A DNA stretch of 64,000 bases. Source: Alphaproteobacteria bacterium (GTDB lineage: Bacteria; Pseudomonadota; Alphaproteobacteria; MPNO01; UBA830). The position numbers were made by a program, and so were the translations under genes. Where the stretch lies: contig OZ251539.1 of assembly GCA_965243135.1 (NCBI GenBank), positions 5,706,250 to 5,770,249 of the forward strand, given 5' to 3'. Below the pieces are notes generated by a model that saw nothing but the letters and a program-made list of their open reading frames with translations, did no database searches and was not told the origin of the DNA. Every line of letters starts with the position of its first letter. The first letter of the stretch is position 1. Positions 3,571 through 57,207 of the stretch are shown piece by piece.

Positions 3571-3619
3571 GCATCGCCCAAAGAGGCATTCTGTCGTCTG
3601 CATTCCAAGAGGAACATCG

Positions 3620-5014
3620 ATGAAGAAATACGAACGCATGGCGGGCCGCGCGCTTCGCCGAACTGTCGTGGTGGGCGGCGTTCTTCTCGCCGCGGCCTTC
3701 ATGGCGGCTGATGCGCATGCCGCCCTCGACGCCGAATCGAAGTTCGTTCTGAACAGTTTTTCGTTCCTCATATGGGGTGCGCTGGTCATGTGGATGTGCG
3801 CGGGCTTCACCATGCTCGAGTCCGGCACCGTGCGGACCAAGAACGCTTCGGTCATCTGCCTGAAGAATATCGGGCTCTATTCCATTGCCGGCCTCGCCTT
3901 CTATCTTCTCGGCTACAACATCATGTATACCGATGTCGGAAGCTGGATCGGTTCCGTCAAGCTGTTATACGGCACGTCCGCCGATGAAATCGCGCTGCTG
4001 TCGGACAAGGCGGACGCGCTGGCCGGGGTTCTCGAGAACGGCTACTCCAAGATGTCGGACTGGTTCTTCCAGATGGTGTTCGTGGCGACCACCGCGTCCA
4101 TCGTGTCCGGCGCGCTTGCCGAGCGCGTCAAGCTTTGGTCGTTTTTCCTGTTCATCGCGCTTCTGACGGCGATCATCTATCCGATCGTCGGCTCATGGAC
4201 CTGGGGCGGCGGCTGGCTCAGCGACTACGGTTTTCAGGATTTCGCGGGATCGACGATCGTTCACTCGACCGGCGGCTGGGCGGCGCTGGCCGGCATCATG
4301 GTCGTCGGCGCGAGGACCGGCAAGTTCAGGGCCGACGGCAGCGTAAAGAGCACTCCGCCGTCGAACGTGCCGGCCGTAACTCTGGGCGTATTCATCCTCT
4401 GGCTGGGCTGGTTCGGTTTCAACGGAGGTTCGCAGCTGGCTTTGGGCGGCGCGGCCGATGCGGTGGCGATCAGCAACATTTTGGCGAACACCAATCTTGC
4501 GGCGGCGGCCGGCGTCATGGTGGCGCTCGCCCTGTCCAGGCCGGTGTTCGGGCGAGTCGATCTGCTCGCCGCGCTGAACGGCGCCATAGCCGGGCTGGTT
4601 TCCATCACCGCGGGTCCCGACATCGTCGAGCATTACTGGGCCGTCATCATCGGCGCCGTCGGCGGCGCCATCTGCGTCTTGGGCATGAAATTGCTCGAAA
4701 CGTTGAAGCTCGACGACGTGGTCGGCGCAATTCCCGCCCATCTGTTCGCCGGCGCATGGGGAACGCTCGCCGTCTGCATTGCCGCCGGCGGCGACATCGT
4801 CGTGCAGATCGTCGGCGTGTTGGCCGTGGGCGTCTTCGTGTTCGCCTGTTCCATAGTTCTCTGGCTGATCATCGACAAGGTTTTCGGAGCGCGCGTTTCG
4901 CTGAAGGTCGAGGAGTTGGGTCAGGATACGGCGGAGCTCGGAATCGAGGCGTATCCCGAATTCGTGCTGATGCCCGACATGGACGAGGCGGACGATTTCT
5001 CGGCCCAAAAGTGA
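3620..5014 (+). CDS. amt: ammonium transporter (Amt family), 464 aa
   Basis: C-terminal part of ORF 1949..5014, starting at MKKYERMAG. It has a signal-like N-terminus and multi-TM Amt signatures (FTMLESG, AERVK, GSTIVH, GWFGFNGGS). An aagagga RBS lies upstream. Confidence 0.95.
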   Translation: MKKYERMAGRALRRTVVVGGVLLAAAFMAADAHAALDAESKFVLNSFSFLIWGALVMWMCAGFTMLESGTVRTKNASVICLKNIGLYSIAGLAFYLLGYNIMYTDVGSWIGSVKLLYGTSADEIALLSDKADALAGVLENGYSKMSDWFFQMVFVATTASIVSGALAERVKLWSFFLFIALLTAIIYPIVGSWTWGGGWLSDYGFQDFAGSTIVHSTGGWAALAGIMVVGARTGKFRADGSVKSTPPSNVPAVTLGVFILWLGWFGFNGGSQLALGGAADAVAISNILANTNLAAAAGVMVALALSRPVFGRVDLLAALNGAIAGLVSITAGPDIVEHYWAVIIGAVGGAICVLGMKLLETLKLDDVVGAIPAHLFAGAWGTLAVCIAAGGDIVVQIVGVLAVGVFVFACSIVLWLIIDKVFGARVSLKVEELGQDTAELGIEAYPEFVLMPDMDEADDFSAQK

Positions 5015-8179: not shown

Positions 8180-8791
8180 TCAGCGATTGCCGATCTCGCC
8201 CAGCAGGCGATCGATGGCGTTCGTAAACCCCTTCAAGGAGCCCTCGAGGCGAAACGGCTCGCCTCCGCCGGCCGCCGGTTCGGCCTCCACGTGAAGCACC
8301 ACTCCCGCCCGGAAGCTTTCGATCATTATCTGGCTGAGGGCGCCGCGCGCGACGCAGCCGTTCGGGAAACAGGAATCGAACGCAAGCAGAGTGCTTGGCG
8401 CCTCGTCGGCGCGCAGCCGCAGGCCGCTCTTCAACTTCAGGCCGAACGGCGTGACCACGACCGCCTCGAATCCCTTGCCGGGGGAGGCCAGCGGGACGAG
8501 AGTCACGGTCAGCAACGGCTGCCGTTGTCCGGACTGGGGGTCTTGCCAGATGAACCGCTGCTCCATGACGCACTGCCGCACGCTCTCGCCTTCCCTCTCC
8601 TCGACCGCGCAGCGCACCGTCCAGTTGTTGTAGGTTTCGGAAAAGGCGCTCGGCCCGGAGACCTGCGCATGCGAGGGCACCCCCCAACCGAGCGCCGCGA
8701 ACGCGATTGCGGCGAAGCGGACGACGAAATTTCTCGCGATCGTCCCGCCCGGCCATCCATTTCTCGCGAACGGCGCTGCGGAACGCGTCAT
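8180..8791 (-). CDS. invasion-associated locus B (IalB) family protein
   Basis: 203 aa with a signal peptide and the typical IalB pattern (..NWTVRC..CVMEQ..FDSCFPNGCVA..). Its ATG shares one nucleotide with the autotransporter stop (TGATG). Confidence 0.8.
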   Translation of the reverse strand: MTRSAAPFARNGWPGGTIARNFVVRFAAIAFAALGWGVPSHAQVSGPSAFSETYNNWTVRCAVEEREGESVRQCVMEQRFIWQDPQSGQRQPLLTVTLVPLASPGKGFEAVVVTPFGLKLKSGLRLRADEAPSTLLAFDSCFPNGCVARGALSQIMIESFRAGVVLHVEAEPAAGGGEPFRLEGSLKGFTNAIDRLLGEIGNR

Positions 8792-11700
8792 CAGAACCGT
8801 ACCTTCAAGTTCATTTCTCCGCCGACTTCATAACTGTCCACCCGGTCCGTCGCAGCGTAGCTCAGCCCGCTCTGGAGCGTATACCGTCCGTCGCCCCAGA
8901 CATGGATTCCCTTCAGGCCCAAGCGAAGCCAGGTAGCCTCCGCCTCCGACTTGAGATTCGTCCCGGACACGTTGACCGTCGTTTCGTCCCTGAGCTCGTG
9001 CTCCAAGTCTATCGAGCCGGACCAGCGACTGTCGGGATTCCCGTCCCAGCTCCCCTCGACGGTCACGCCCCCCCTGCCTTTCAGGCTTTGCCCGTCTGCA
9101 GAGATGCGCGGACCGTCTACAGACCCGTCTGCAGAGACGCGCTCTGTCACCTTGTCGGTGAAGCCCGGCCAAGACACCCTCGCATAGGTCAGCCCGAACC
9201 GGGGCACGACGACGACGCCGTCCTGGTCGGACCGGCGGCCGACTTCCACGCCCAACGCATGGCTGCGGCCCCTCGCTCCCTTCTTCAGGTCGCCGCGGAG
9301 CGAGGAACTGAGATCCGTCTCGTAAAACGTCGTTTCGCCCTGGACGTCCACGTAGACGTCGTCCCGGCGCCAAGTGCCGGATATTCCCGCGCCGACGCCG
9401 AACAGATCGACTTTGCCGCCTTTCGAGATATCCGCCTGTCCGCGGCGATGGTGCACGGATACGCCGAAAAGGCCGTCGCGTATCGTCGTATCCAGCCCTC
9501 CCTGAAAGCCGCCGCTGTTGCGGTAGTATTCCAACTCCGACGTCGTCGAAGAAGCCGCTTTCCACTTGCCGTGAGAGCCGTACACGCGAGCCCATACGCC
9601 TTTCGCGTCCCGCGGCGCGGTCATTCGGTCGCGGAGATTCGTCAGTCTGGTCATCCCCAGCAGCACCGACGGCAGCGCCTCGTAAACCCGTGCGCGCGGC
9701 GCGAGTTCGCGAACCACCCTGACGCCGCCGCTCCCGTCCGTCTCCAAGCCTAGGTCATAAGCGCCGGACGGAGCCGACTCCGTGGTGCCGAGCCTGCCCA
9801 GCTTGATCGGCTCGGTCGAGCCGAAAGGTTGGTACCGTACGTCGACGCTCTCCTGTCCTTCGGCAGCCAGGATTCGGCCTTTCACCCGATCCACGGCTTC
9901 GCCCGACATTTCGTCGGGGCTTTCCTGGATCGTGATCTTGATATCGCCCCGTTCGCTCGAAACCGCGATAACGTCGTCTCCGCCTCCGGGGTTGATCCGG
10001 CCTTTCGGACCTACGGTAAACGCGCCGCCCTCGTCGATCATGACGCGGCCGACCGCGCCGTTCACCGTCAACGCGCTCTCGCCTTCGCCTACCCGCGTGG
10101 CTACGCGCACGGCGCCCGTCACCGTTCCGCCTTCCGCCACCGTAACCCTGTGCTTCCCGGTCCCCAGAGCGAGCACGTCGCCCGTAAGCATGCCGGCCAG
10201 GTTGGCGGTCAGGTCTTCGGCGTCGCTGCGGACTGCCTCGCCCTCGATTCCGGTGATCGAGCCGGTACCGCTGACCGTCACCGTGCCGCCTTTTTCCAGC
10301 CACACGCGCCCGGCCGTGCCAGCGACCGTCACCTCGCTTGCGGCAAGCTGGATGGTTCCTCCCACCGTCCCGCCATCGTGCACCGTGACGGTGTGGTCGC
10401 CCGAGCCATCGCCGAGGATATCGCCCGTGACCATGCCCGTCACCGACGCGGTCAGATCTCCGAGCGCGTGGATGTTGCCCTCCACCGTTCCGGCCACCGT
10501 CGCGTCGAGGGCGCGCGAGCCGCTGGAGAATATTGCCGTGGGCTTCGAGGAGATTACCCTGCCGGTCCGGCCAACCGTCACCGTGCCGCCGTCAGACAAG
10601 ATTACTCCGCTGTTGCCGCCGGTCACGTCGCCATCGACTCTGACGATGCCGGTCGGCACGTTTCCATTCGCGTCAGCGCTGGTGGACACTTGGATGCCGG
10701 CAAGGCCGCCCGAGACGCTGGCGCCTTCGCCGACGGTTATCGAGACGGTGCCCGCGCCGCTGAAATCCGCCAGCACGCCAAGGCTGCCGGATCCCGCCGC
10801 CCTGACCTCGCCGTCAGCGATGTTGATGGAGCCGCTGCCGGCCGTGGAGCGATAGAGATGGACGCCGTGGCCATAGTCGCCCGCTGTCGTAGCTTCGCCG
10901 CCGGTCATGCGGAAGGCGAGGCTGCCGGCGCCGTTCTGCTGGACGAAAACGGCGTTGGCTCTTTCGCCTTCCGTCTTGACGGAACCGGACAGTTCGACCG
11001 CCAGATCGCCGCTGCCGTCGTTGATCGCGTGGATGCCGTGAGCGTCGGCCCCTTTCGTGGTGACGGAGCCTCCGTCCACGGTCACTGCGACATTGCCCTT
11101 GGCACCGCGATGTTCGGCGAAGACGCCGTGAGCTTCTTCGCCTGCGGTCGCGGCGGCGACGCCCGTCAAGCGGACGGCGACGCTGCCTTCGTTTTCGTGC
11201 CGGGCCTGGACGGCGTAGGCGCCGCCAATCCCCGTCGTGTCGATGGAACCGCCCGTGACGGCGATGTCGATGTCGCCGACGCCGGTGCCATCGACCAATT
11301 CGTTAACGAAGCAGTCGTCGTTGTGGCCGGTGCAGCCGGGTTTCCGCGACCGGATGATCGTCTGCTGGATCAGACCGTAGACGCCGCGGGCGTGGTTGCC
11401 GGTGGTTGCGATGGCGGCATCCGTGACGGCGATGGCGATGTTGCCGGTGCCGATGTCGTTGGGGTCGACGGTCCCGTCGTTGTCGTCGGCCCCGCTGTCG
11501 CCCCGGTGCCGCGCCCAGATGCCGTGGGAGTCCTCGCCCTCAGTGGCGATGTCGCCGCCCGTCACGACGATGGAGATGCCGCCTCCGCCTGGCGTGACGA
11601 CGGTTTCGCCTTCGCTGGCTCCTTCGCCTACACAATCGTCGGGGTCCGCCTCAGTACACACAGTCTCCGTTCGGGTCCTGCCGGTATGGGTGGCGTAGAT

Positions 11701-13287
11701 GCCCTGGGCGTCGTCGCCCCAGGTCCGGATGTTGTTGTCGGTGGCGCGGACGCGAATGTCGCCATGGCCCTCATGGCTGGCGTAGATGCCCCGGGCTTGG
11801 AAGCCGGTGGCTTGGGAGCCGCTGGGAGCGCCGTCAATCCTTTCCACGTAACAGGCGCGGCGATCATCCGCCGTCTCGAGGGCCTGGCAGTAGGCGACAT
11901 CCTCCGACAGGCTCTCGTCCAATGCCCGGAAGTAACGGCCGTTCCAGATAACGATCTGGGGATCCGCGAAAAACTCGCGCGAGTCGGGATCCTCGGGGTC
12001 GTGATTCGGATTCCTGACGGGAAGATAGGCGAGGGTATAGGGGCGGAAGTCAGCAGTGAGGCCTTTATTCAGTCGAATAAACTGCGCAATGTTGACGAAC
12101 TCGGGCGAGTCCGGGTCCGTAGGATCGTAATCCGAATTGCGAGTAAAGGGCTTGTCGGGGTCGAAGACAAGGTCGCGGACAAGGTCGCGCCGCGGGGTGC
12201 CGACCGCGCCTATGGGCACGATGCCCCCGGTGGCGATGTCGTAGCCTTCCACCGTGACGGCGATATGCCCATATGCGGCGGCGCGGGTGTATTCGGCCCG
12301 GACCGCGTCGGCTTGGTCGCCGCGGGTTCCGACCAGCGGGCGGACGCGCTGTTCGCGGTCGCGGTCGGTCTCGATGAGGTTGACGACCACCGCGCCCCTT
12401 GCCCGCGTGATGGCGCCGCTGCCCTGCCTGACTACGCCATCCTCCTCGGTCCTGATGGTGTAGGAGTTGTCCGTGTTATCCCATGTGACGCAGTTGGTGG
12501 GGGCGACCCAGTCGCCGTGCTCGTCCCTGCATCTGAGGCTGGGGCTGAGCCAGTTGCCGTCCTCGTCCCTGTAGACGTAGCTGCCTTCCTGCCAGCCATA
12601 GACTCCGTAAGCATCGTTGCCGGTGGTTCGAACCGAGAGGTTGCGGACGTCGATGCCGACCCGGCCCTCCCCGGTGTGCTTGGCGTGGATGCCGTAGGAA
12701 GCCTCGCCCGTCTCATAATAGGCCGTGTTGCCCGTAGTGAAGATGCCACGGGCGTAATCCAGCGGGAACGGATACGAGAAGACGTTGGCGGCGCTGCCGA
12801 ATTGCTCGGAGACGGAATGGGCGTAGATCTCCAGATTGCCGCTGCCCTCGTACAGGGCTTCGATGGCGGGGAGGAAGTCGCCGGCAACGATGAGTGCGGG
12901 GTTGAGGACGACGAGGGCGCGGCCCTTCGTTTCCGCGCGCCCGTAACGGCAATAGATGTCCTGGGTGAGATCGCGCACGACTTGGCCGCCGACCGCCCGA
13001 TACAGGGCGCGGAATTTCTCGGGGTCGCGGACGAGCTCCCCGCCAGTAATGTAATCGTTGTCGTCGACTTGGATGACGCGGTTGCCATCCTCGTTCTCGA
13101 CGCTGCCGCCCTCTATGATTGATATTGTGGGTGCTACGCTTGGGCAAGTAAACCGCACTTGCGCCTCCGCCTCTCCGGCGCCGAAGGCGATCGCGCCGAG
13201 CAGCAGCCCTCCGACGACCGTCATTGCAGGGCGCTTCGCGCATCCTCTCCGAAGGAACCGCAGTCCGCGGCGGAAATCATCGTACAT
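8791..13287 (-). CDS. autotransporter (type Va) with repeat-rich passenger and C-terminal beta-barrel, 1498 aa
   Basis: ORF 8791..14343 trimmed to ATG 13287 (MYDDFRRGLRFLRRGCAKRPAMTVVGGLLLGAIAFGAGEAEAQ signal). A GGGAG SD lies 8 nt upstream. The passenger has G-rich beta-helix-type repeats, and the barrel ends ..GGEMNLKVRF. The upstream extension overlaps UbiD out of frame. Confidence 0.9.
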   Translation of the reverse strand: MYDDFRRGLRFLRRGCAKRPAMTVVGGLLLGAIAFGAGEAEAQVRFTCPSVAPTISIIEGGSVENEDGNRVIQVDDNDYITGGELVRDPEKFRALYRAVGGQVVRDLTQDIYCRYGRAETKGRALVVLNPALIVAGDFLPAIEALYEGSGNLEIYAHSVSEQFGSAANVFSYPFPLDYARGIFTTGNTAYYETGEASYGIHAKHTGEGRVGIDVRNLSVRTTGNDAYGVYGWQEGSYVYRDEDGNWLSPSLRCRDEHGDWVAPTNCVTWDNTDNSYTIRTEEDGVVRQGSGAITRARGAVVVNLIETDRDREQRVRPLVGTRGDQADAVRAEYTRAAAYGHIAVTVEGYDIATGGIVPIGAVGTPRRDLVRDLVFDPDKPFTRNSDYDPTDPDSPEFVNIAQFIRLNKGLTADFRPYTLAYLPVRNPNHDPEDPDSREFFADPQIVIWNGRYFRALDESLSEDVAYCQALETADDRRACYVERIDGAPSGSQATGFQARGIYASHEGHGDIRVRATDNNIRTWGDDAQGIYATHTGRTRTETVCTEADPDDCVGEGASEGETVVTPGGGGISIVVTGGDIATEGEDSHGIWARHRGDSGADDNDGTVDPNDIGTGNIAIAVTDAAIATTGNHARGVYGLIQQTIIRSRKPGCTGHNDDCFVNELVDGTGVGDIDIAVTGGSIDTTGIGGAYAVQARHENEGSVAVRLTGVAAATAGEEAHGVFAEHRGAKGNVAVTVDGGSVTTKGADAHGIHAINDGSGDLAVELSGSVKTEGERANAVFVQQNGAGSLAFRMTGGEATTAGDYGHGVHLYRSTAGSGSINIADGEVRAAGSGSLGVLADFSGAGTVSITVGEGASVSGGLAGIQVSTSADANGNVPTGIVRVDGDVTGGNSGVILSDGGTVTVGRTGRVISSKPTAIFSSGSRALDATVAGTVEGNIHALGDLTASVTGMVTGDILGDGSGDHTVTVHDGGTVGGTIQLAASEVTVAGTAGRVWLEKGGTVTVSGTGSITGIEGEAVRSDAEDLTANLAGMLTGDVLALGTGKHRVTVAEGGTVTGAVRVATRVGEGESALTVNGAVGRVMIDEGGAFTVGPKGRINPGGGDDVIAVSSERGDIKITIQESPDEMSGEAVDRVKGRILAAEGQESVDVRYQPFGSTEPIKLGRLGTTESAPSGAYDLGLETDGSGGVRVVRELAPRARVYEALPSVLLGMTRLTNLRDRMTAPRDAKGVWARVYGSHGKWKAASSTTSELEYYRNSGGFQGGLDTTIRDGLFGVSVHHRRGQADISKGGKVDLFGVGAGISGTWRRDDVYVDVQGETTFYETDLSSSLRGDLKKGARGRSHALGVEVGRRSDQDGVVVVPRFGLTYARVSWPGFTDKVTERVSADGSVDGPRISADGQSLKGRGGVTVEGSWDGNPDSRWSGSIDLEHELRDETTVNVSGTNLKSEAEATWLRLGLKGIHVWGDGRYTLQSGLSYAATDRVDSYEVGGEMNLKVRF

Positions 13288-13345
13288 CGACCAAGCTCCC
13301 AAGCTGTTTTGACTGAAACCGAACATCACAGACAAAGACGACGCC

Positions 13346-13374
13346 ATTTTACTCCCCCCCCCCCCTCTTTGCAA
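13346..13374 (-). promoter_or_regulatory. candidate phase-variable promoter of the autotransporter
   Basis: Minus strand reads TTGCAA(13374-13369), then a 17-nt spacer aga+G12+ag, then TAAAAT(13351-13346). The homopolymer forms most of the spacer. Confidence 0.55.
13354..13365 (-). repeat. homopolymeric G12 tract (C12 on the plus strand)
   Basis: Counted directly: actCCCCCCCCCCCCtcttt. Confidence 0.95.
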
Positions 13375-13507
13375 CCGGAGGTTTCTCGCGCCGGCGATTC
13401 GCGCCAGCGAGGCCGACGTTCGAAGAAGGCGCGCCGGGGAGGCGCCGTTGGATGGACAGGCCGCTTCGACGCGAGCGAAGCGCCTCATCCAAGAGCGAAT
13501 AGTACCG

Positions 13508-13592
13508 AATCGTCCGGAAAAGTCCACGAAAAATTTTTTCGAACTCCCGGTTTTCCGTAGGTTTCGGGTCTCGGCGGGAATCGCCGTTCCGG
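13508..13592 (+). repeat. dispersed intergenic repeat family 2, copy b
   Basis: ccggaaaagtccacgaaaaattttttcgaactcccggttttccg..ggcgggaatcgccg, between the UbiD stop and the autotransporter promoter. Confidence 0.45.
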
Positions 13593-13634: not shown

Positions 13635-15026
13635 CTACGGCAGAAAATCGTCGAGATCCACCTTGTCGAAATTCCGCGGCATCGCGCGCCGAAAGCGCTC
13701 GCGCTCTTCGGCGGCGGCCGGCATGGTCGCGTCGATCATCCACTTCGTTCCGACGCGGTGGAAGCTGTTCTGGCCCGGCGCAACCGGAGAGACGTTGTCG
13801 AGCGCGAACACGCGGGTATGCGGGATGGTCACGATATCGCGCTCGGCGTGCACGCGCGTCGTCATCGACCACATGACCTGACGCAGATCGCCGGCGTCCA
13901 CGTCCGCGTCCACGGCGATCGCGAGTTTCGGGTGAAGGTACGGGCCCGAAAGCGCCGCCATCAGCGCCGTCTTGGCCTGGCCTTCGACGCGCGGACGAAG
14001 CTTTATCACCAGCATCATCATGCCCGCCGACGGATGGCAGCGCACGTCCATCAGGTCGAGCCCGCCCTCGACGTTGCGGAGATGGTCCCTCGTCGCGGCC
14101 TCCACCCCGAGCGCCATCGTGCCCTGCGTGTCGGTCGTCGGATATCCGCAATGCACGGCGTAGAAGACGGGGTCCTTGCGGCGCGTCATGCAACGAACCC
14201 GAAAGACGTGCGAATGGGTCGCCTCCGCGTAGGTGCCCGGAATTTCCCCGAAGGGGCCTTCCGGCACCTGCCTGTCGCGCAGCACCTCGCCCTCGAGCAC
14301 GAGCTCCGCCTCGGCCGGAACCTCGAGATCCAGCGTCTTGCAACGAACCATCCGCACGCCTTCCCCGATCAGCGCGCCGGCGACCTCAAGTTCGTCCTGT
14401 TCGAAGCCGGTCGTGAAGCCCGCGCCGAAGAACAGGGCCGGATGCCCGCCGTAGACCATGGCGACCGGCATGTCCCGGCCCTGCGCGGCGTACGCGTCGT
14501 AGATGCGCTTCGCCTGGCGCGGCACCATGATGAAGCCGGTTTCGCGTTCGTTCAGCACCATCTGGCGGTGAACCGACACGTTGCGGACTCCGGTCTCGGG
14601 ATCCCTGACGATCGCCATGCCCGACGCGAAGTAGCGGCCGCCGTCCCGCTCGGAGGTCATCATCGACGGCACTTCGAGAATGTTCACGTCCGCGCCTTCC
14701 GCCACGACCTCCTGGACGGGCGCCTCGGCGGCGTCGACCGTGGGAACGGTCCGTCCGAGGCGGGCCGCGACTTCGTCGAGGATCCCGTCTTCCTCGATGC
14801 CGAGGCCGATGGCCCATTTGCGGCGGTCGGCGAGAATCTGGCTGACCGCCCGCCACCCCTCGTGACCCTTGATGCTGGTGAACAGGCTGGCCTTGCCGGC
14901 CTCGTTGAACGCCTTCCATTCGACGGCCGCCATGTTCTCCAGAGGATCCACTTCCGTGGCGAAACGGATCAGTTCCCCCTGCTGCTCGAGATTGGCGAGA
15001 AAGGTGCGAAGGGACTGGTCGACCAT
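13635..15026 (-). CDS. UbiD-family (prFMN-dependent) decarboxylase
   Basis: 463 aa. UbiD pattern throughout (..GGRYFASGMAIVRDPETG..NVSVHR..EGPFGEIPGTY..). Confidence 0.9.
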   Translation of the reverse strand: MVDQSLRTFLANLEQQGELIRFATEVDPLENMAAVEWKAFNEAGKASLFTSIKGHEGWRAVSQILADRRKWAIGLGIEEDGILDEVAARLGRTVPTVDAAEAPVQEVVAEGADVNILEVPSMMTSERDGGRYFASGMAIVRDPETGVRNVSVHRQMVLNERETGFIMVPRQAKRIYDAYAAQGRDMPVAMVYGGHPALFFGAGFTTGFEQDELEVAGALIGEGVRMVRCKTLDLEVPAEAELVLEGEVLRDRQVPEGPFGEIPGTYAEATHSHVFRVRCMTRRKDPVFYAVHCGYPTTDTQGTMALGVEAATRDHLRNVEGGLDLMDVRCHPSAGMMMLVIKLRPRVEGQAKTALMAALSGPYLHPKLAIAVDADVDAGDLRQVMWSMTTRVHAERDIVTIPHTRVFALDNVSPVAPGQNSFHRVGTKWMIDATMPAAAEERERFRRAMPRNFDKVDLDDFLP

Positions 15027-51039: not shown

Positions 51040-52154
51040 GTGTTGTGTCCCTTAAATAGATATTATATATCGGCGTGGGAAATTTTCAGGAGGAGGTCAC
51101 CATGCCGAAAGGGAGGCCTGTCACGCCGCTCGTTCTCACTCAGGAAGCGCAACTGCGCAGCATTGCGAATGCAACGTCGCTGCCCTGACTCTGCGCGCCA
51201 GGATCGTTCTGGAGTGCGCCGCGGGAATGTCGAACAGGGCGGTTGCCGAAAAGTTCGACGTTTCGCCGCTGACCGTGGGCAAATGGCGAAAGCGGTTTGT
51301 GGAAGGCGGGACCGAAGGACTGCACGACGAATTGCGCAGCGGCCGGCCCCGGACATACGACGACGAACGGGTTGCCGAGGTCATCAAGAGCGCGCTTCAG
51401 GAAACGCCGAAAAACGCGACGCACTGGAGCGTTCGCTCAATGGCCCGCCATGCCGGCCTCTCGAAGAGCACCGTCCAGCGTTGGTTCGAGTTGTTCGGCG
51501 TCAAGCCCCACCTGCGCAAGACGTTCAAGCTGTCGACGGATCCGTTCTTCGTCGAGAAGGTGCGCGACATCGTCGGATCTCAACCCTCCGGAACACGCGG
51601 TGGTGCTGTGCGTCGACGAGAAATCACAGATTCAGGCCCTCGACCGTACCCAGCCGACCCTGCCCCTCGGGCTCGGCTATGTCGAGGGCTACACCCATGA
51701 CTACATCCGTCACGGCACCACCACGTTGTTCGCCGCGCTCGACGTTGCCACCGGACAGGTCATCGCCACTTGCAAGCAACGTCATCGTCACCAGGATTTC
51801 CTCGACTTTCTGCGCCTCATCGATCGTAATGTCCCTGAAGAACTCGACGTCCGTGGCTGACAACTACGCGACCCACAAGCATCCCAAGGTTCGTGCCTGC
51901 GCAGCGACCTCGCTACCATCTCCACTTCACCCCGACCTACGCTTCCTGGCTCAACCAGGTCGAGCGCTGGTTCGGCCACGGAGACCGCCCTTCGCCGGGG
52001 ATCGTTCGCAAACGTCAGCCAATTAGTGAAATGCATCAAGCGGTTCACCGAAGACTACAATCGCGAGGCCGCCCCCTTCGTTTGGGCTGCTACCGCCGAG
52101 TCCATTCTCGAAAAGGTCCAGCGATTATCTATGCGTATTTCTGGGACAGAACAC
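51040..52154 (+). mobile_element. IS630-family element
   Basis: Inverted repeats GTGTTGTGTCCC.. and ..GGGACAGAACAC, flanked by TA (51038-39 and 52155-56) in a CTAG context, which is typical of IS630. Confidence 0.85.
51102..52150 (+). pseudogene. IS630-family transposase, multiply frameshifted
   Basis: MPKGRPVTPLVL..; [33 protein letters not shown]..; [43 protein letters not shown]..; DNYATHKHPKV; HLHFTPTYASWLNQVERWF. These segments lie in different frames. Confidence 0.8.
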
Positions 52155-53091: not shown

Positions 53092-53105
53092 GGGGGGGGG
53101 GGGGG
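53092..53105 (+). repeat. homopolymeric G14 tract inside the IS left end
   Basis: Counted directly: atggcGGGGGGGGGGGGGGcgcg, 77 nt upstream of the transposase ATG. Confidence 0.95.
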
Positions 53106-54931: not shown

Positions 54932-56089
54932 TCAAACTTTCTCCCAGCCTGAAAGAACGGCCAGATCAAGTTCCATTTGATCGAAAAAACCCTCTGGCCA
55001 GTCGCTGATTGCTCCGGTTTTGTCGATGGTGACGGTCATGACCTTCCCGGTATCGCTTTCCGGACCGAAGAAGTGCAACGCGACAGCGCTCTGATCGAGC
55101 AAACTATCGCGCACTGCAAGACGGATGCCATTAAGCAAGTGATCGCTATGGGTTTCGACGAAGATCTGTATGCCCGCGCCAGCCATTTGACCAAGCAGCC
55201 GGCCAACGGCGGACTGCGCCCGAGGGTGCAGATGAGCTTCCGCGCTATCCACGACCATGATCGATCCTGGTGCCGTGGTCAGCAATGCGACTAGCATGGG
55301 AAAGGCGTAGCTCAATCCATAACCAACGTTCGCCGGTCGAACCCAATTGCTCGTTCTGCTTGAACTGAAAGTCAGCAACGCTGGAGAGTCGGGAGTTAGC
55401 CGATCGGCTTTTACGCGAGATCCTGGAAATATTTCGCCGAGCCACGCATCGATCTGCGCACGTACCGTTTCCCGATCATCTTCCGGGTGGCGCCGTGCGA
55501 TGTCGACTGTCTCGTCAGCATACTCAAGATACCAATAAGCGGCATACTCACCGTTCGCGCCGACATCCCCTAGCGGGCGCCATGGTTCGCATGGCACGGG
55601 AAATATCTCAATCTGCGCCTTACGCTCTGCACTGAGGAATATTGCATCCCGCATAGCGGAAACCAGTTGCGAGTGCCCATCCACAGGCTGGATTTTGCAA
55701 ACTGATTCCTCGGGAACGCCGTCTCGCGAATATTCTACGGTTGCGAGATGCATCAACCCCCTGGCCGACAACTCTGATTTGTGATCGAAGGTCCATGTGA
55801 TTTTTTCTTCAGTGTTTCCGACGCTTCCGATGCCGAGCTGAAGAGATTTTTCCGAGGCGTTTCTTCTAATTATTGCGTCCGCGCTGCCTAAGTTAACTAG
55901 GTCTCCATTCAGGTGCAGCCTCCTGCCGTCAGGAGCGACGCGGAGGGCTTGCGTCATCAACAATAGCGCCTGCAGAGCCGTGGATTTGCCGGCTGCATTA
56001 TATCCCGTCAGTACCGTCAGCGGTGCGCAGGGCAGTTCAAGAGCACCGAAGCACTTGAAGTCCTTCATCACTATTGATTTAATCGTCAT
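54932..56089 (-). CDS. AAA ATPase with DUF3696-type C-terminus
   Basis: 385 aa from MTIKSIVMKDFKCFG. Walker A GYNAAGKST, Walker B IMVVDSAEAHLHP, H-loop VETHSDHLL, C-terminal DWPEGFFDQ. The ATG is 2 nt after the DUF262 stop. Confidence 0.85.
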   Translation of the reverse strand: MTIKSIVMKDFKCFGALELPCAPLTVLTGYNAAGKSTALQALLLMTQALRVAPDGRRLHLNGDLVNLGSADAIIRRNASEKSLQLGIGSVGNTEEKITWTFDHKSELSARGLMHLATVEYSRDGVPEESVCKIQPVDGHSQLVSAMRDAIFLSAERKAQIEIFPVPCEPWRPLGDVGANGEYAAYWYLEYADETVDIARRHPEDDRETVRAQIDAWLGEIFPGSRVKADRLTPDSPALLTFSSSRTSNWVRPANVGYGLSYAFPMLVALLTTAPGSIMVVDSAEAHLHPRAQSAVGRLLGQMAGAGIQIFVETHSDHLLNGIRLAVRDSLLDQSAVALHFFGPESDTGKVMTVTIDKTGAISDWPEGFFDQMELDLAVLSGWEKV

Positions 56090-56091
56090 GG

Positions 56092-57207
56092 TCAAATATC
56101 CTGACAACTATCTTCGGTCATATAATTTCCGAGACAATCTTCCACCATACTAAATCTGGTTCTGACTTGTTTGGTGCTGTTCGTAGAATAGGTGATGGCA
56201 TCTTCAAAATCGCAATGCATCATCAAATCTCTGATTAGCGTTTTTATCTGTTTTTTATTCATATCGAAAACCTCGGTCGAAATTTGCGCGCAAGCCCAAG
56301 ATAACACGTCAAAAAGCGCCATATTTATTACCGTCTTGTTATCGCTAAATTTGGCTAAGGATTTTCGAAACGCATGATCGCGAAATAATTTATAATTTTG
56401 GCGCATGGAAGCAATAAAAGTTTCCTCTATTCGAGTGCTTCCCGCTTTGGAATTTAGGTGTATCAAAGATCGCGCCAAGAATTCGTCCATGTCGCCATTA
56501 TCATATGACTTCCATCCAAAAATATAAAATCCGGCAAATCGGTTGATGGCTTCACGGTCGCGCATTTTCTTGGGGTCGAGGGATCCGCCTGTTGCCTTCA
56601 AGAAGTAATCGTTTTTTGACATGTCGGAAACCCAGCGCGTTCCGGGCCCATTGAAAATCGCGTTGCGCATTTGCTGTCGGGTTAAAGGAACGCCGTCGTT
56701 GACGCGTTCAAATATGTCCAGTCGGGCGCGTTGGGGCGCGTCTTTATCGAGGATATAGAGCATAAGCTGTGTATCTTCCACTCTATCTTGGAGTTGTATT
56801 TCAAGATCGGAGAAGCGCTTTTCTTCCAAGGGATGATTGCGGCCGAGCCCGGTCAGTTTCAGCTTTCCATCCAGGAAACGAACGAATGTCGTCAAGCGCT
56901 GAAGCCCGTCGACGATTACGATTCGTCCATCGGGGGCTTCGGCGACGTACAGAGCTGGAAGCGGTATACGCATGATGCAACTTTCGACCAGCTTGGATTG
57001 CTTCTGCGGCTTCCAGACAAAATCGCGTTGAAAATCGGGATCTAGGAAGAAACGGCCACGCCGTATTCTTCTGACAACTTCGGAGACTGTGCGAGTCTCG
57101 GAGCGAACCATAATGTCGTGGAGAGGATACGCGCCCCTCTCGGTGACGGAAGGATCTTCGTATCCCTCGATCTCCTCGGGTGGAGTTTGCTTCAAAGAAA
57201 CTGTCAT
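56092..57207 (-). CDS. DUF262 (GmrSD N-terminal / ParB-like NTPase fold) protein
   Basis: 371 aa. FLDPDFQRDFVW..IVDGLQRLTT matches the DUF262 DGQQR-type motif. The region is low GC. Confidence 0.85.
   Translation of the reverse strand: MTVSLKQTPPEEIEGYEDPSVTERGAYPLHDIMVRSETRTVSEVVRRIRRGRFFLDPDFQRDFVWKPQKQSKLVESCIMRIPLPALYVAEAPDGRIVIVDGLQRLTTFVRFLDGKLKLTGLGRNHPLEEKRFSDLEIQLQDRVEDTQLMLYILDKDAPQRARLDIFERVNDGVPLTRQQMRNAIFNGPGTRWVSDMSKNDYFLKATGGSLDPKKMRDREAINRFAGFYIFGWKSYDNGDMDEFLARSLIHLNSKAGSTRIEETFIASMRQNYKLFRDHAFRKSLAKFSDNKTVINMALFDVLSWACAQISTEVFDMNKKQIKTLIRDLMMHCDFEDAITYSTNSTKQVRTRFSMVEDCLGNYMTEDSCQDI

Follow-up and report, generated by a model that had tools for sequence, protein, structure and literature searches.

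The question raised by this locus is whether the run of 12 guanines that precedes a large surface-protein gene is the variable spacer of a phase-variable promoter. The window, that is the whole stretch of 64,000 nucleotides (64 kb) analysed here, has a G+C content of 63% and contains two homopolymers of at least 10 nt, the G12 run in question and a G14 run at 53092-53105. By our own arithmetic, approximately 0.09 G/C runs of 12 nt or longer are expected in 64 kb at this composition. A preliminary description of this DNA had placed the G12 run between the hexamers of the autotransporter promoter and had compared the arrangement with a phase-variation switch. The features on which the argument depends are the following:

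13374-13369, minus strand: -35-like hexamer TTGCAA (sequence and consensus scan)
13352-13368, minus strand: 17-nt promoter spacer, aga-G12-ag (AGA at 13368-13366, G12, AG at 13353-13352)
13354-13365, minus strand: G12 homopolymer (C12 on the plus strand), the proposed slippage-prone element (homopolymer run search)
13351-13346, minus strand: -10-like hexamer TAAAAT (sequence and consensus scan)
13288-13339, minus strand: predicted 5' leader of ~52 nt, placed from the -10 position
13300-13296, minus strand: Shine-Dalgarno GGGAG, 8 nt ahead of ATG 13287
8791-13287, minus strand: predicted type Va autotransporter gene, 1498 aa (signal peptide, repeat-rich passenger, C-terminal 12-stranded barrel plus helix)
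8180-8791, minus strand: IalB-family gene (Pfam PF06776, E 8e-21), whose ATG overlaps the autotransporter stop (TGATG)

Direct reading of the minus strand gives the order cctccgg-TTGCAA-aga-GGGGGGGGGGGG-ag-TAAAAT-ggcg, which agrees letter by letter with the motif first described (TTGCAA, aga-G12-ag, TAAAAT). The spacing of 17 nt between the -35 and -10 hexamers at 12 G was also correctly counted, but "exactly 17" is a soft figure, because a 12-nt homopolymer may be off by one if the source contig is a long-read metagenome assembly, as the contigs of its relatives appear to be. Regarding sigma-70-like sites, TTGCAA-17-TAAAAT is the single pair found between 13000 and 14000, with 9 of 12 consensus matches where shuffled sequences give an expectation of 0.1, and the same consensus criteria applied to both strands of the whole 64-kb window return just 22 sites. 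The G12 run is an uninterrupted repeat long enough for slippage (about 8 nt or more) and, judged by consensus, it would lie between the -35 and the -10 of the gene's promoter. Transcription is predicted to start near 13339. The gap between the -10 and ATG 13287 is 58 nt, close to the "about 55 nt" of the preliminary description, and the leader length matches that of the homologs; the assignment of the start to ATG 13287 with its GGGAG is borne out by the sequence, by the database gene call (P0001) and by the starts of the homologs. No Rfam family was identified in the window, nor in the leader and intergenic region, and a tRNA search found none.

The open reading frame from ATG 13287 to the stop at 8791-8793 encodes 1,498 amino acids and is identical to database entry P0001. 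A profile built from the last 340 residues matches the beta-domains of EspP (E 1.5e-14) and Hbp; the full-length profile gave no match against PDB sequences, and the C-terminal profile alone worked. The AlphaFold model of the C-terminal region (pLDDT 88) has a helix at 39-54 followed by a run of beta-strands forming a barrel, and the best Foldseek matches for this model are the barrels of EstA, EspP, AIDA-I, NalP and BrkA. In addition, tblastn identified matches to annotated autotransporter barrels on Rhizobiales plasmids. The three lines of evidence (profile, AlphaFold/Foldseek and tblastn) point to a genuine type Va (classical) autotransporter; the preliminary description had called the gene an autotransporter. 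Pfam and NCBIfam searches of the window protein returned no match, PF03797 included, even when the C-terminal 369 amino acids were searched at E <= 10. Among 16 aligned homologs PF03797 was found in six (best E 5e-30) and missed in 10, and we regard the failure of PF03797 and NCBIfam to recognise the predicted barrel (8791-9900, minus strand) as a sensitivity gap of the models that weighs less than the structural evidence. On inspection, a charged n-region, a stretch of hydrophobic residues (MTVVGGLLLGAIAFGAG) and a cleavage-like AEA-Q site can be recognised at the N-terminus, all kept in the homologs, and the N-terminus looks like an extended signal peptide. Residues 44-500 of the passenger (11788-13158, minus strand) are highly conserved, with about 120 invariant residues among eight sequences, conserved cysteines and the motifs YCRYGRA and RAEYTRAAA. 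For the same residues, no family or PDB match was found, and AlphaFold gave no usable model (pLDDT 34).

Immediately downstream, the stop and start codons of the autotransporter and IalB-family genes overlap in the window (TGATG at 8789-8793, minus strand), and a 4-nt overlap occurs in one of the homologous loci, L021 (7102-7105). The IalB gene follows the autotransporter also in L001, L002, L005, L008, L013 and L021, so that the pair is present in at least seven loci. This conservation suggests a functional module, and the IalB gene is probably co-transcribed with the autotransporter and hence under the same switch. In Bartonella, IalB is an invasion-associated protein. The upstream neighbour is a ubiD-family gene on the same strand, ending at 13635. 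No terminator was detected after it, so some read-through transcription from the ubiD-family gene into the autotransporter may occur. The intergenic region between the two genes contains an AT-rich near-palindrome amid GC-rich DNA, CGAAAAAATTTTTCG (13527-13541, minus strand), and an imperfect hairpin with 16-nt arms (13453-13491, minus strand) about 80 nt upstream of the -35; either may bind a regulator or act as a weak terminator.

Comparison with homologous loci is important in order to understand whether the arrangement is particular to the window. An alignment-based scan and exact-protein look-ups gave 23 homologous loci (designated by L numbers), 24 with the window, from complete MAG chromosomes (OZ2514xx, OZ2418xx) and metagenome contigs. 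The autotransporters of these loci share 33-55% protein identity with that of the window. The window's locus was not met a second time: exact-protein look-ups for its autotransporter, UbiD-family and IalB proteins gave nothing, single-protein scans of genome contigs and metagenome contigs returned no close relative of it, and the promoter flanks, searched as a DNA pattern separated by a gap of variable length, had no match in metagenome contigs. In 19 of the 24 loci, window included, the 500 nt that precede the autotransporter start contain a G/C run of 10 nt or longer. From the background of seven such runs in the remaining 254 kb, 0.33 loci would be expected to have one (Poisson P ~4e-27), which corresponds to an enrichment of more than 50-fold upstream of the autotransporter family. 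When orthologous groups are allowed for, the run is found in approximately 14 of approximately 18 independent lineages. The homologous tracts range from G10 to G20.

In nine promoters, window included, the G run is placed between a TTGxxx and a TAxxxx hexamer:

window: TTGCAA-aga-G12-ag-TAAAAT, spacer 17 nt
L003: TTGCAA-c-G16-TATATT, spacer 17 nt
L004: TTGCGC-ggc-G14-TATACT, spacer 17 nt
L014: TTGTTT-tcgggaa-G10-GATAAT, spacer 17 nt
L012: TTGCTT-gttgc-G11-TATTCT, spacer 16 nt
L015 and L022: TTGCAA-aacgc-G13-TATAAA, spacer 18 nt
L020: flanks of the L015 type with G11, spacer 16 nt
L007 and L024: TTGACC-G19-TATAAA, spacer 19 nt
L023: TTGACC-G17-tg-TATAAC, spacer 19 nt

The sequence ahead of the tract is TTGCAA, or TTGCxx/TTGACC, in L003, L004, L007, L012, L015, L023 and L024, and the hexamer directly after the tract in the homologs is TATATT, TATACT, TATAAA, TATTCT or GATAAT; some of these -10 hexamers (TATAAA) are without the T at position 6. 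In all spacer tracts the G's are on the coding strand. The gap between the -10 and the ATG is 59-69 nt in L003, L004, L012 and L015, against 58 nt in the window. Across the nine promoters, the longer the tract, the fewer are the remaining bases of the spacer (r = -0.96). The tracts vary from 10 to 19 nt, yet the total spacers remain within 16-19 nt, and so narrow a range has a permutation P of 0.0004. Such compensation between tract and non-tract bases is what selection on hexamer spacing predicts. Locus L006, with no tract, has TTGCGC-18 nt-TATCAT at the same place, an ordinary spacer. As controls, tracts located elsewhere (the window G14, L001 G11, L012 C11 and L021 C15) are without the hexamer layout. 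The recurrence of hexamers and tract before the homologs, the compensation, and the hexamers kept in the tract-less L006 all favour the phase-variation promoter layout put forward in the preliminary description.

That description had also proposed a comparison of tract length among relatives, and lengths do vary between close relatives, twice as G13/G11 and once as G19/G17, so that the invariance across strains named there as a refutation is not what the family shows; the window locus, being without a second copy, is outside this comparison. L015 (OZ241357) and L022 (ERZ25070167) have G13 where L020, from Agelas tubulata, has G11, the flanks being nearly identical, and L008 has G13 where L021, from Agelas sventres, has G11. 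The G11 alleles are on PANK22-1 scaffolds, whereas the G13 alleles are on chromosome-level MAGs or on contigs with long-read-style names, so part of the G13/G11 difference could be technical, the platforms being deduced from contig naming. In the third group, L007 and L024 have G19, and L023 has G17 plus TG; all three have a total spacer of 19 nt, and this argues for a preferred state rather than scatter.

Not every member of the family fits the simple layout. L005 does so only via an alternative -10 (TTGCGG-16-CATAGT), and L005, L008, L013 and the loci with C tracts are to be considered as departures from it. In L008 (2341-2353), L021 (2487-2497) and L013 (2382-2401) the G run ends 3-6 nt before an ATG, which in L021 is the called start, and in these three loci the run could be a Shine-Dalgarno-like element instead of a promoter spacer. 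The C runs of L001, L009, L011 and L017 lie outside any recognisable spacer; that of L017, for instance, is 17 nt upstream of a TTGACA-17-TATAAC promoter. The C10 of L010 (2386-2395) and the C15 of L011 (2377-2391) are in frame with an N-terminal extension of the autotransporter ORF. The L010 run appears to be inside the N-terminal coding region, and perhaps the L011 run is as well, the alternative start of L011 being a GTG further downstream with a good Shine-Dalgarno; both are possible translational (frameshift) switches. L002 and the pair L018/L019 have no homopolymer upstream. L018 and L019, one on a contig from Aplysina cauliformis and the other on a contig from Agelas tubulata, encode an identical distant homolog, P0040. 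About 300 nt upstream of the P0040 gene the heptamer CGCAGAC is repeated eight times in L018 (~125-185) and seven times in L019 (~209-262), in both cases upstream of a TTGACA-17-TATATG site. The family uses repeats at the 5' end of its genes in several ways, and the window belongs to the clearest class.

We consider it probable that the G12 run is a slippage-driven spacer for transcriptional phase variation of the promoter of the autotransporter-IalB operon. According to this model, the run would be the variable-length spacer of a sigma-70-type promoter, TTGCAA-17-TAAAAT, driving both genes. Slipped-strand mispairing at replication would add or remove G's, the gain or loss would alter the distance and the rotational phasing of the -35 relative to the -10 hexamer, and the altered phasing would turn transcription up or down, reversibly and randomly, in a fraction of the cells. 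The G12 state, with its 17-nt spacer, is the predicted high-expression state. We infer that the hexamers act as a promoter, that expression responds to changes in tract length, and that the organism switches often and reversibly. The product, a surface-exposed autotransporter, is of a class typical of phase-variable genes, and homologs come from sponge tissue, a host-associated setting.

The same layout would also be obtained if the G run were a real but effectively static spacer, a by-product of G/C-rich, slippage-prone genomes with no adaptive switch, tolerated because any spacer of 16-19 nt works. Every assembled spacer is indeed in this workable range, the three orthologs of the L007 type all hold 19 nt, and other long G/C runs occur without an obvious regulatory role (between dnaK and dnaJ in L021, and the G14 of the window). 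A passive by-product, however, is difficult to reconcile with the enrichment of tracts upstream of this one gene family, with the persistence of uninterrupted runs of 10-19 nt in the promoters of genes whose products have diverged to identities of 33-55%, and with unequal tract lengths in near-identical loci; when the close relatives L001 and L002 are compared, a background tract, in contrast, is seen to have decayed to GGAGGGGGG. We therefore consider a static spacer unlikely, although it is the strongest competitor of the phase-variable spacer.

Somewhat less probable again is that the tract acts otherwise than by hexamer spacing, as an activator site or distance-setter of the kind seen at the BvgA-dependent fim promoters of Bordetella, as a G-quadruplex or i-motif, or as part of the ribosome-binding region. 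The runs that end just before the ATG in L008/L021 and L013, the C runs of L017, L009, L001 and L011, and the constant orientation of the spacer tracts would all suit such a role. On the other hand, the window and eight other promoters have the tract exactly between good hexamers, and a compensated total spacer is predicted by spacing control and unneeded for structure or binding; the strand bias is explicable by common descent of the promoter. A canonical three-tetrad quadruplex needs more than a G12 run, and the tract of the window is too short for this form. Very improbable, in our view, is a location of the tract within the coding sequence of a longer protein, where it would encode an in-frame Gly4 and act as a frameshift switch, or an origin as an assembly artefact. 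The autotransporter frame is open through the tract up to 14343, and long homopolymers are error-prone in long-read assemblies. However, the upstream extension would overlap the same-strand ubiD-family gene and has no signal-peptide character, and the database gene call begins at 13287. In most homologs a stop codon separates the tract from the ATG, which makes the tract non-coding, and we rejected this role. An artefact was rejected as well, since tracts at the same position recur in independent assemblies with different contig-naming styles. The phase-variable promoter spacer thus remains the preferred reading.

Phase variation through a poly-C promoter spacer is known for Neisseria opc. The Neisseria-type precedent invoked in the preliminary description is documented for fetA and porA, where the length of the promoter-spacer tract sets the spacing, and through it the level of transcription, and strains differ in this length (PMC5320596). 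Like porA (poly-G), fetA/frpB (poly-C) and opc (poly-C), the locus of the window has a G/C homopolymer between the hexamers ahead of an outer-membrane protein gene. In contrast to Neisseria, the host here is uncultured and GC-rich (63%), its relatives being for the most part MAGs associated with sponges, and the target is a classical autotransporter to which an IalB gene is coupled; moreover, whereas the Neisseria tracts concern the gene of one species, here the design is common to a diverged gene family as a whole. The Bordetella C-stretch defines how far the activator BvgA site is from the -10. The promoters of fim2, fim3, fimX and fimN have a C-stretch of 7-22 nt, which is variable among strains and affects transcription (PMC1891110). 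As in the window family, related surface-protein genes of a GC-rich proteobacterium all have a G/C homopolymer in the promoter, and the Bordetella fim genes are the best counterpart for family-wide conservation of the tract. The differences are that here a plain -35-like hexamer flanks the tract, with no activator known, and that the products are autotransporters and not fimbrial subunits. Homopolymer-switched autotransporters are also described for Neisseria meningitidis (NalP/AspA and MspA/AusI) and Campylobacter (CapA) (PMC3723659, PMC7168839). These share with the window the link between autotransporter expression and homopolymer slippage, which here is a proposal; their tracts are in the coding sequence and act by frameshift, whereas that of the window is in the predicted promoter spacer. 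The mechanism is already known, and what sets this case apart is the host group, uncultured and partly sponge-associated, and the persistence of an uninterrupted tract across a deeply diverged family.

Nearly all that is known of homopolymer phase variation comes, to our knowledge, from pathogens and commensals of animals that have been cultured, for example Neisseria, Haemophilus, Campylobacter, Helicobacter and Bordetella. Five of the homologous loci come from PANK22-1 assemblies, which derive from the sponge tissue metagenomes of Pankey et al. 2022 (Agelas tubulata, A. sventres and Aplysina cauliformis; PMC13083261 supplement), and the organism of the window may be marine or sponge-associated as well. 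The family occurs in MAGs whose labels assign them to Alpha- and Gammaproteobacteria, and even to Nitrospirales. Should the switch be real, host-associated environmental bacteria would randomly vary a large surface protein and the coupled IalB protein within a population, which bears on the persistence of symbionts inside a filter-feeding, phagocytosing host. The promoter-spacer design is conserved in a family in which protein identity has fallen to about one-third. A wider hypothesis, which we advance tentatively and with more doubt than confidence, is that an ancient poly-G switch has been kept uninterrupted before the autotransporter(-IalB) family across unrelated uncultured marine bacteria, that phase variation by SSR of a surface or invasion module is a general strategy of sponge symbionts, and that the gene takes the switch along when it is transferred horizontally. 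If true, it would represent bet-hedging, for example against host phagocytosis or phages. The locus offers a direct test of read-level heterogeneity in existing metagenomes. The expression state at such loci is unreadable from a consensus MAG, and homopolymer errors in the assembly matter there.

Long G/C runs were observed at other places in the window and the homologous loci. The G14 run of the window (53092-53105, plus strand) is 76 nt upstream of ATG 53182, the start of an apparently frameshifted ORF with no Pfam match. It is located between IS630-like transposase remnants (51227-51860) and a defence-type AAA_21/DUF3696 ATPase gene (54932-56107). We considered this run as a second promoter switch and rejected it, given its lack of the hexamer layout and its position among these elements. 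The C15 run of L021 (1169-1183) is in the short spacer between dnaK (HSP70) and dnaJ, an unexpected place, in a sponge-associated bacterium. L001 has a C27 run (3615-3641) at 360 nt from the autotransporter and at about 310 nt from a divergent glutamine-amidotransferase-like gene, upstream of both. No tract is present in the proximal promoter of the L001 autotransporter (TTGACA...), and the sister contig L002 has an IS element (DDE_Tnp_1) at the position of the C27.
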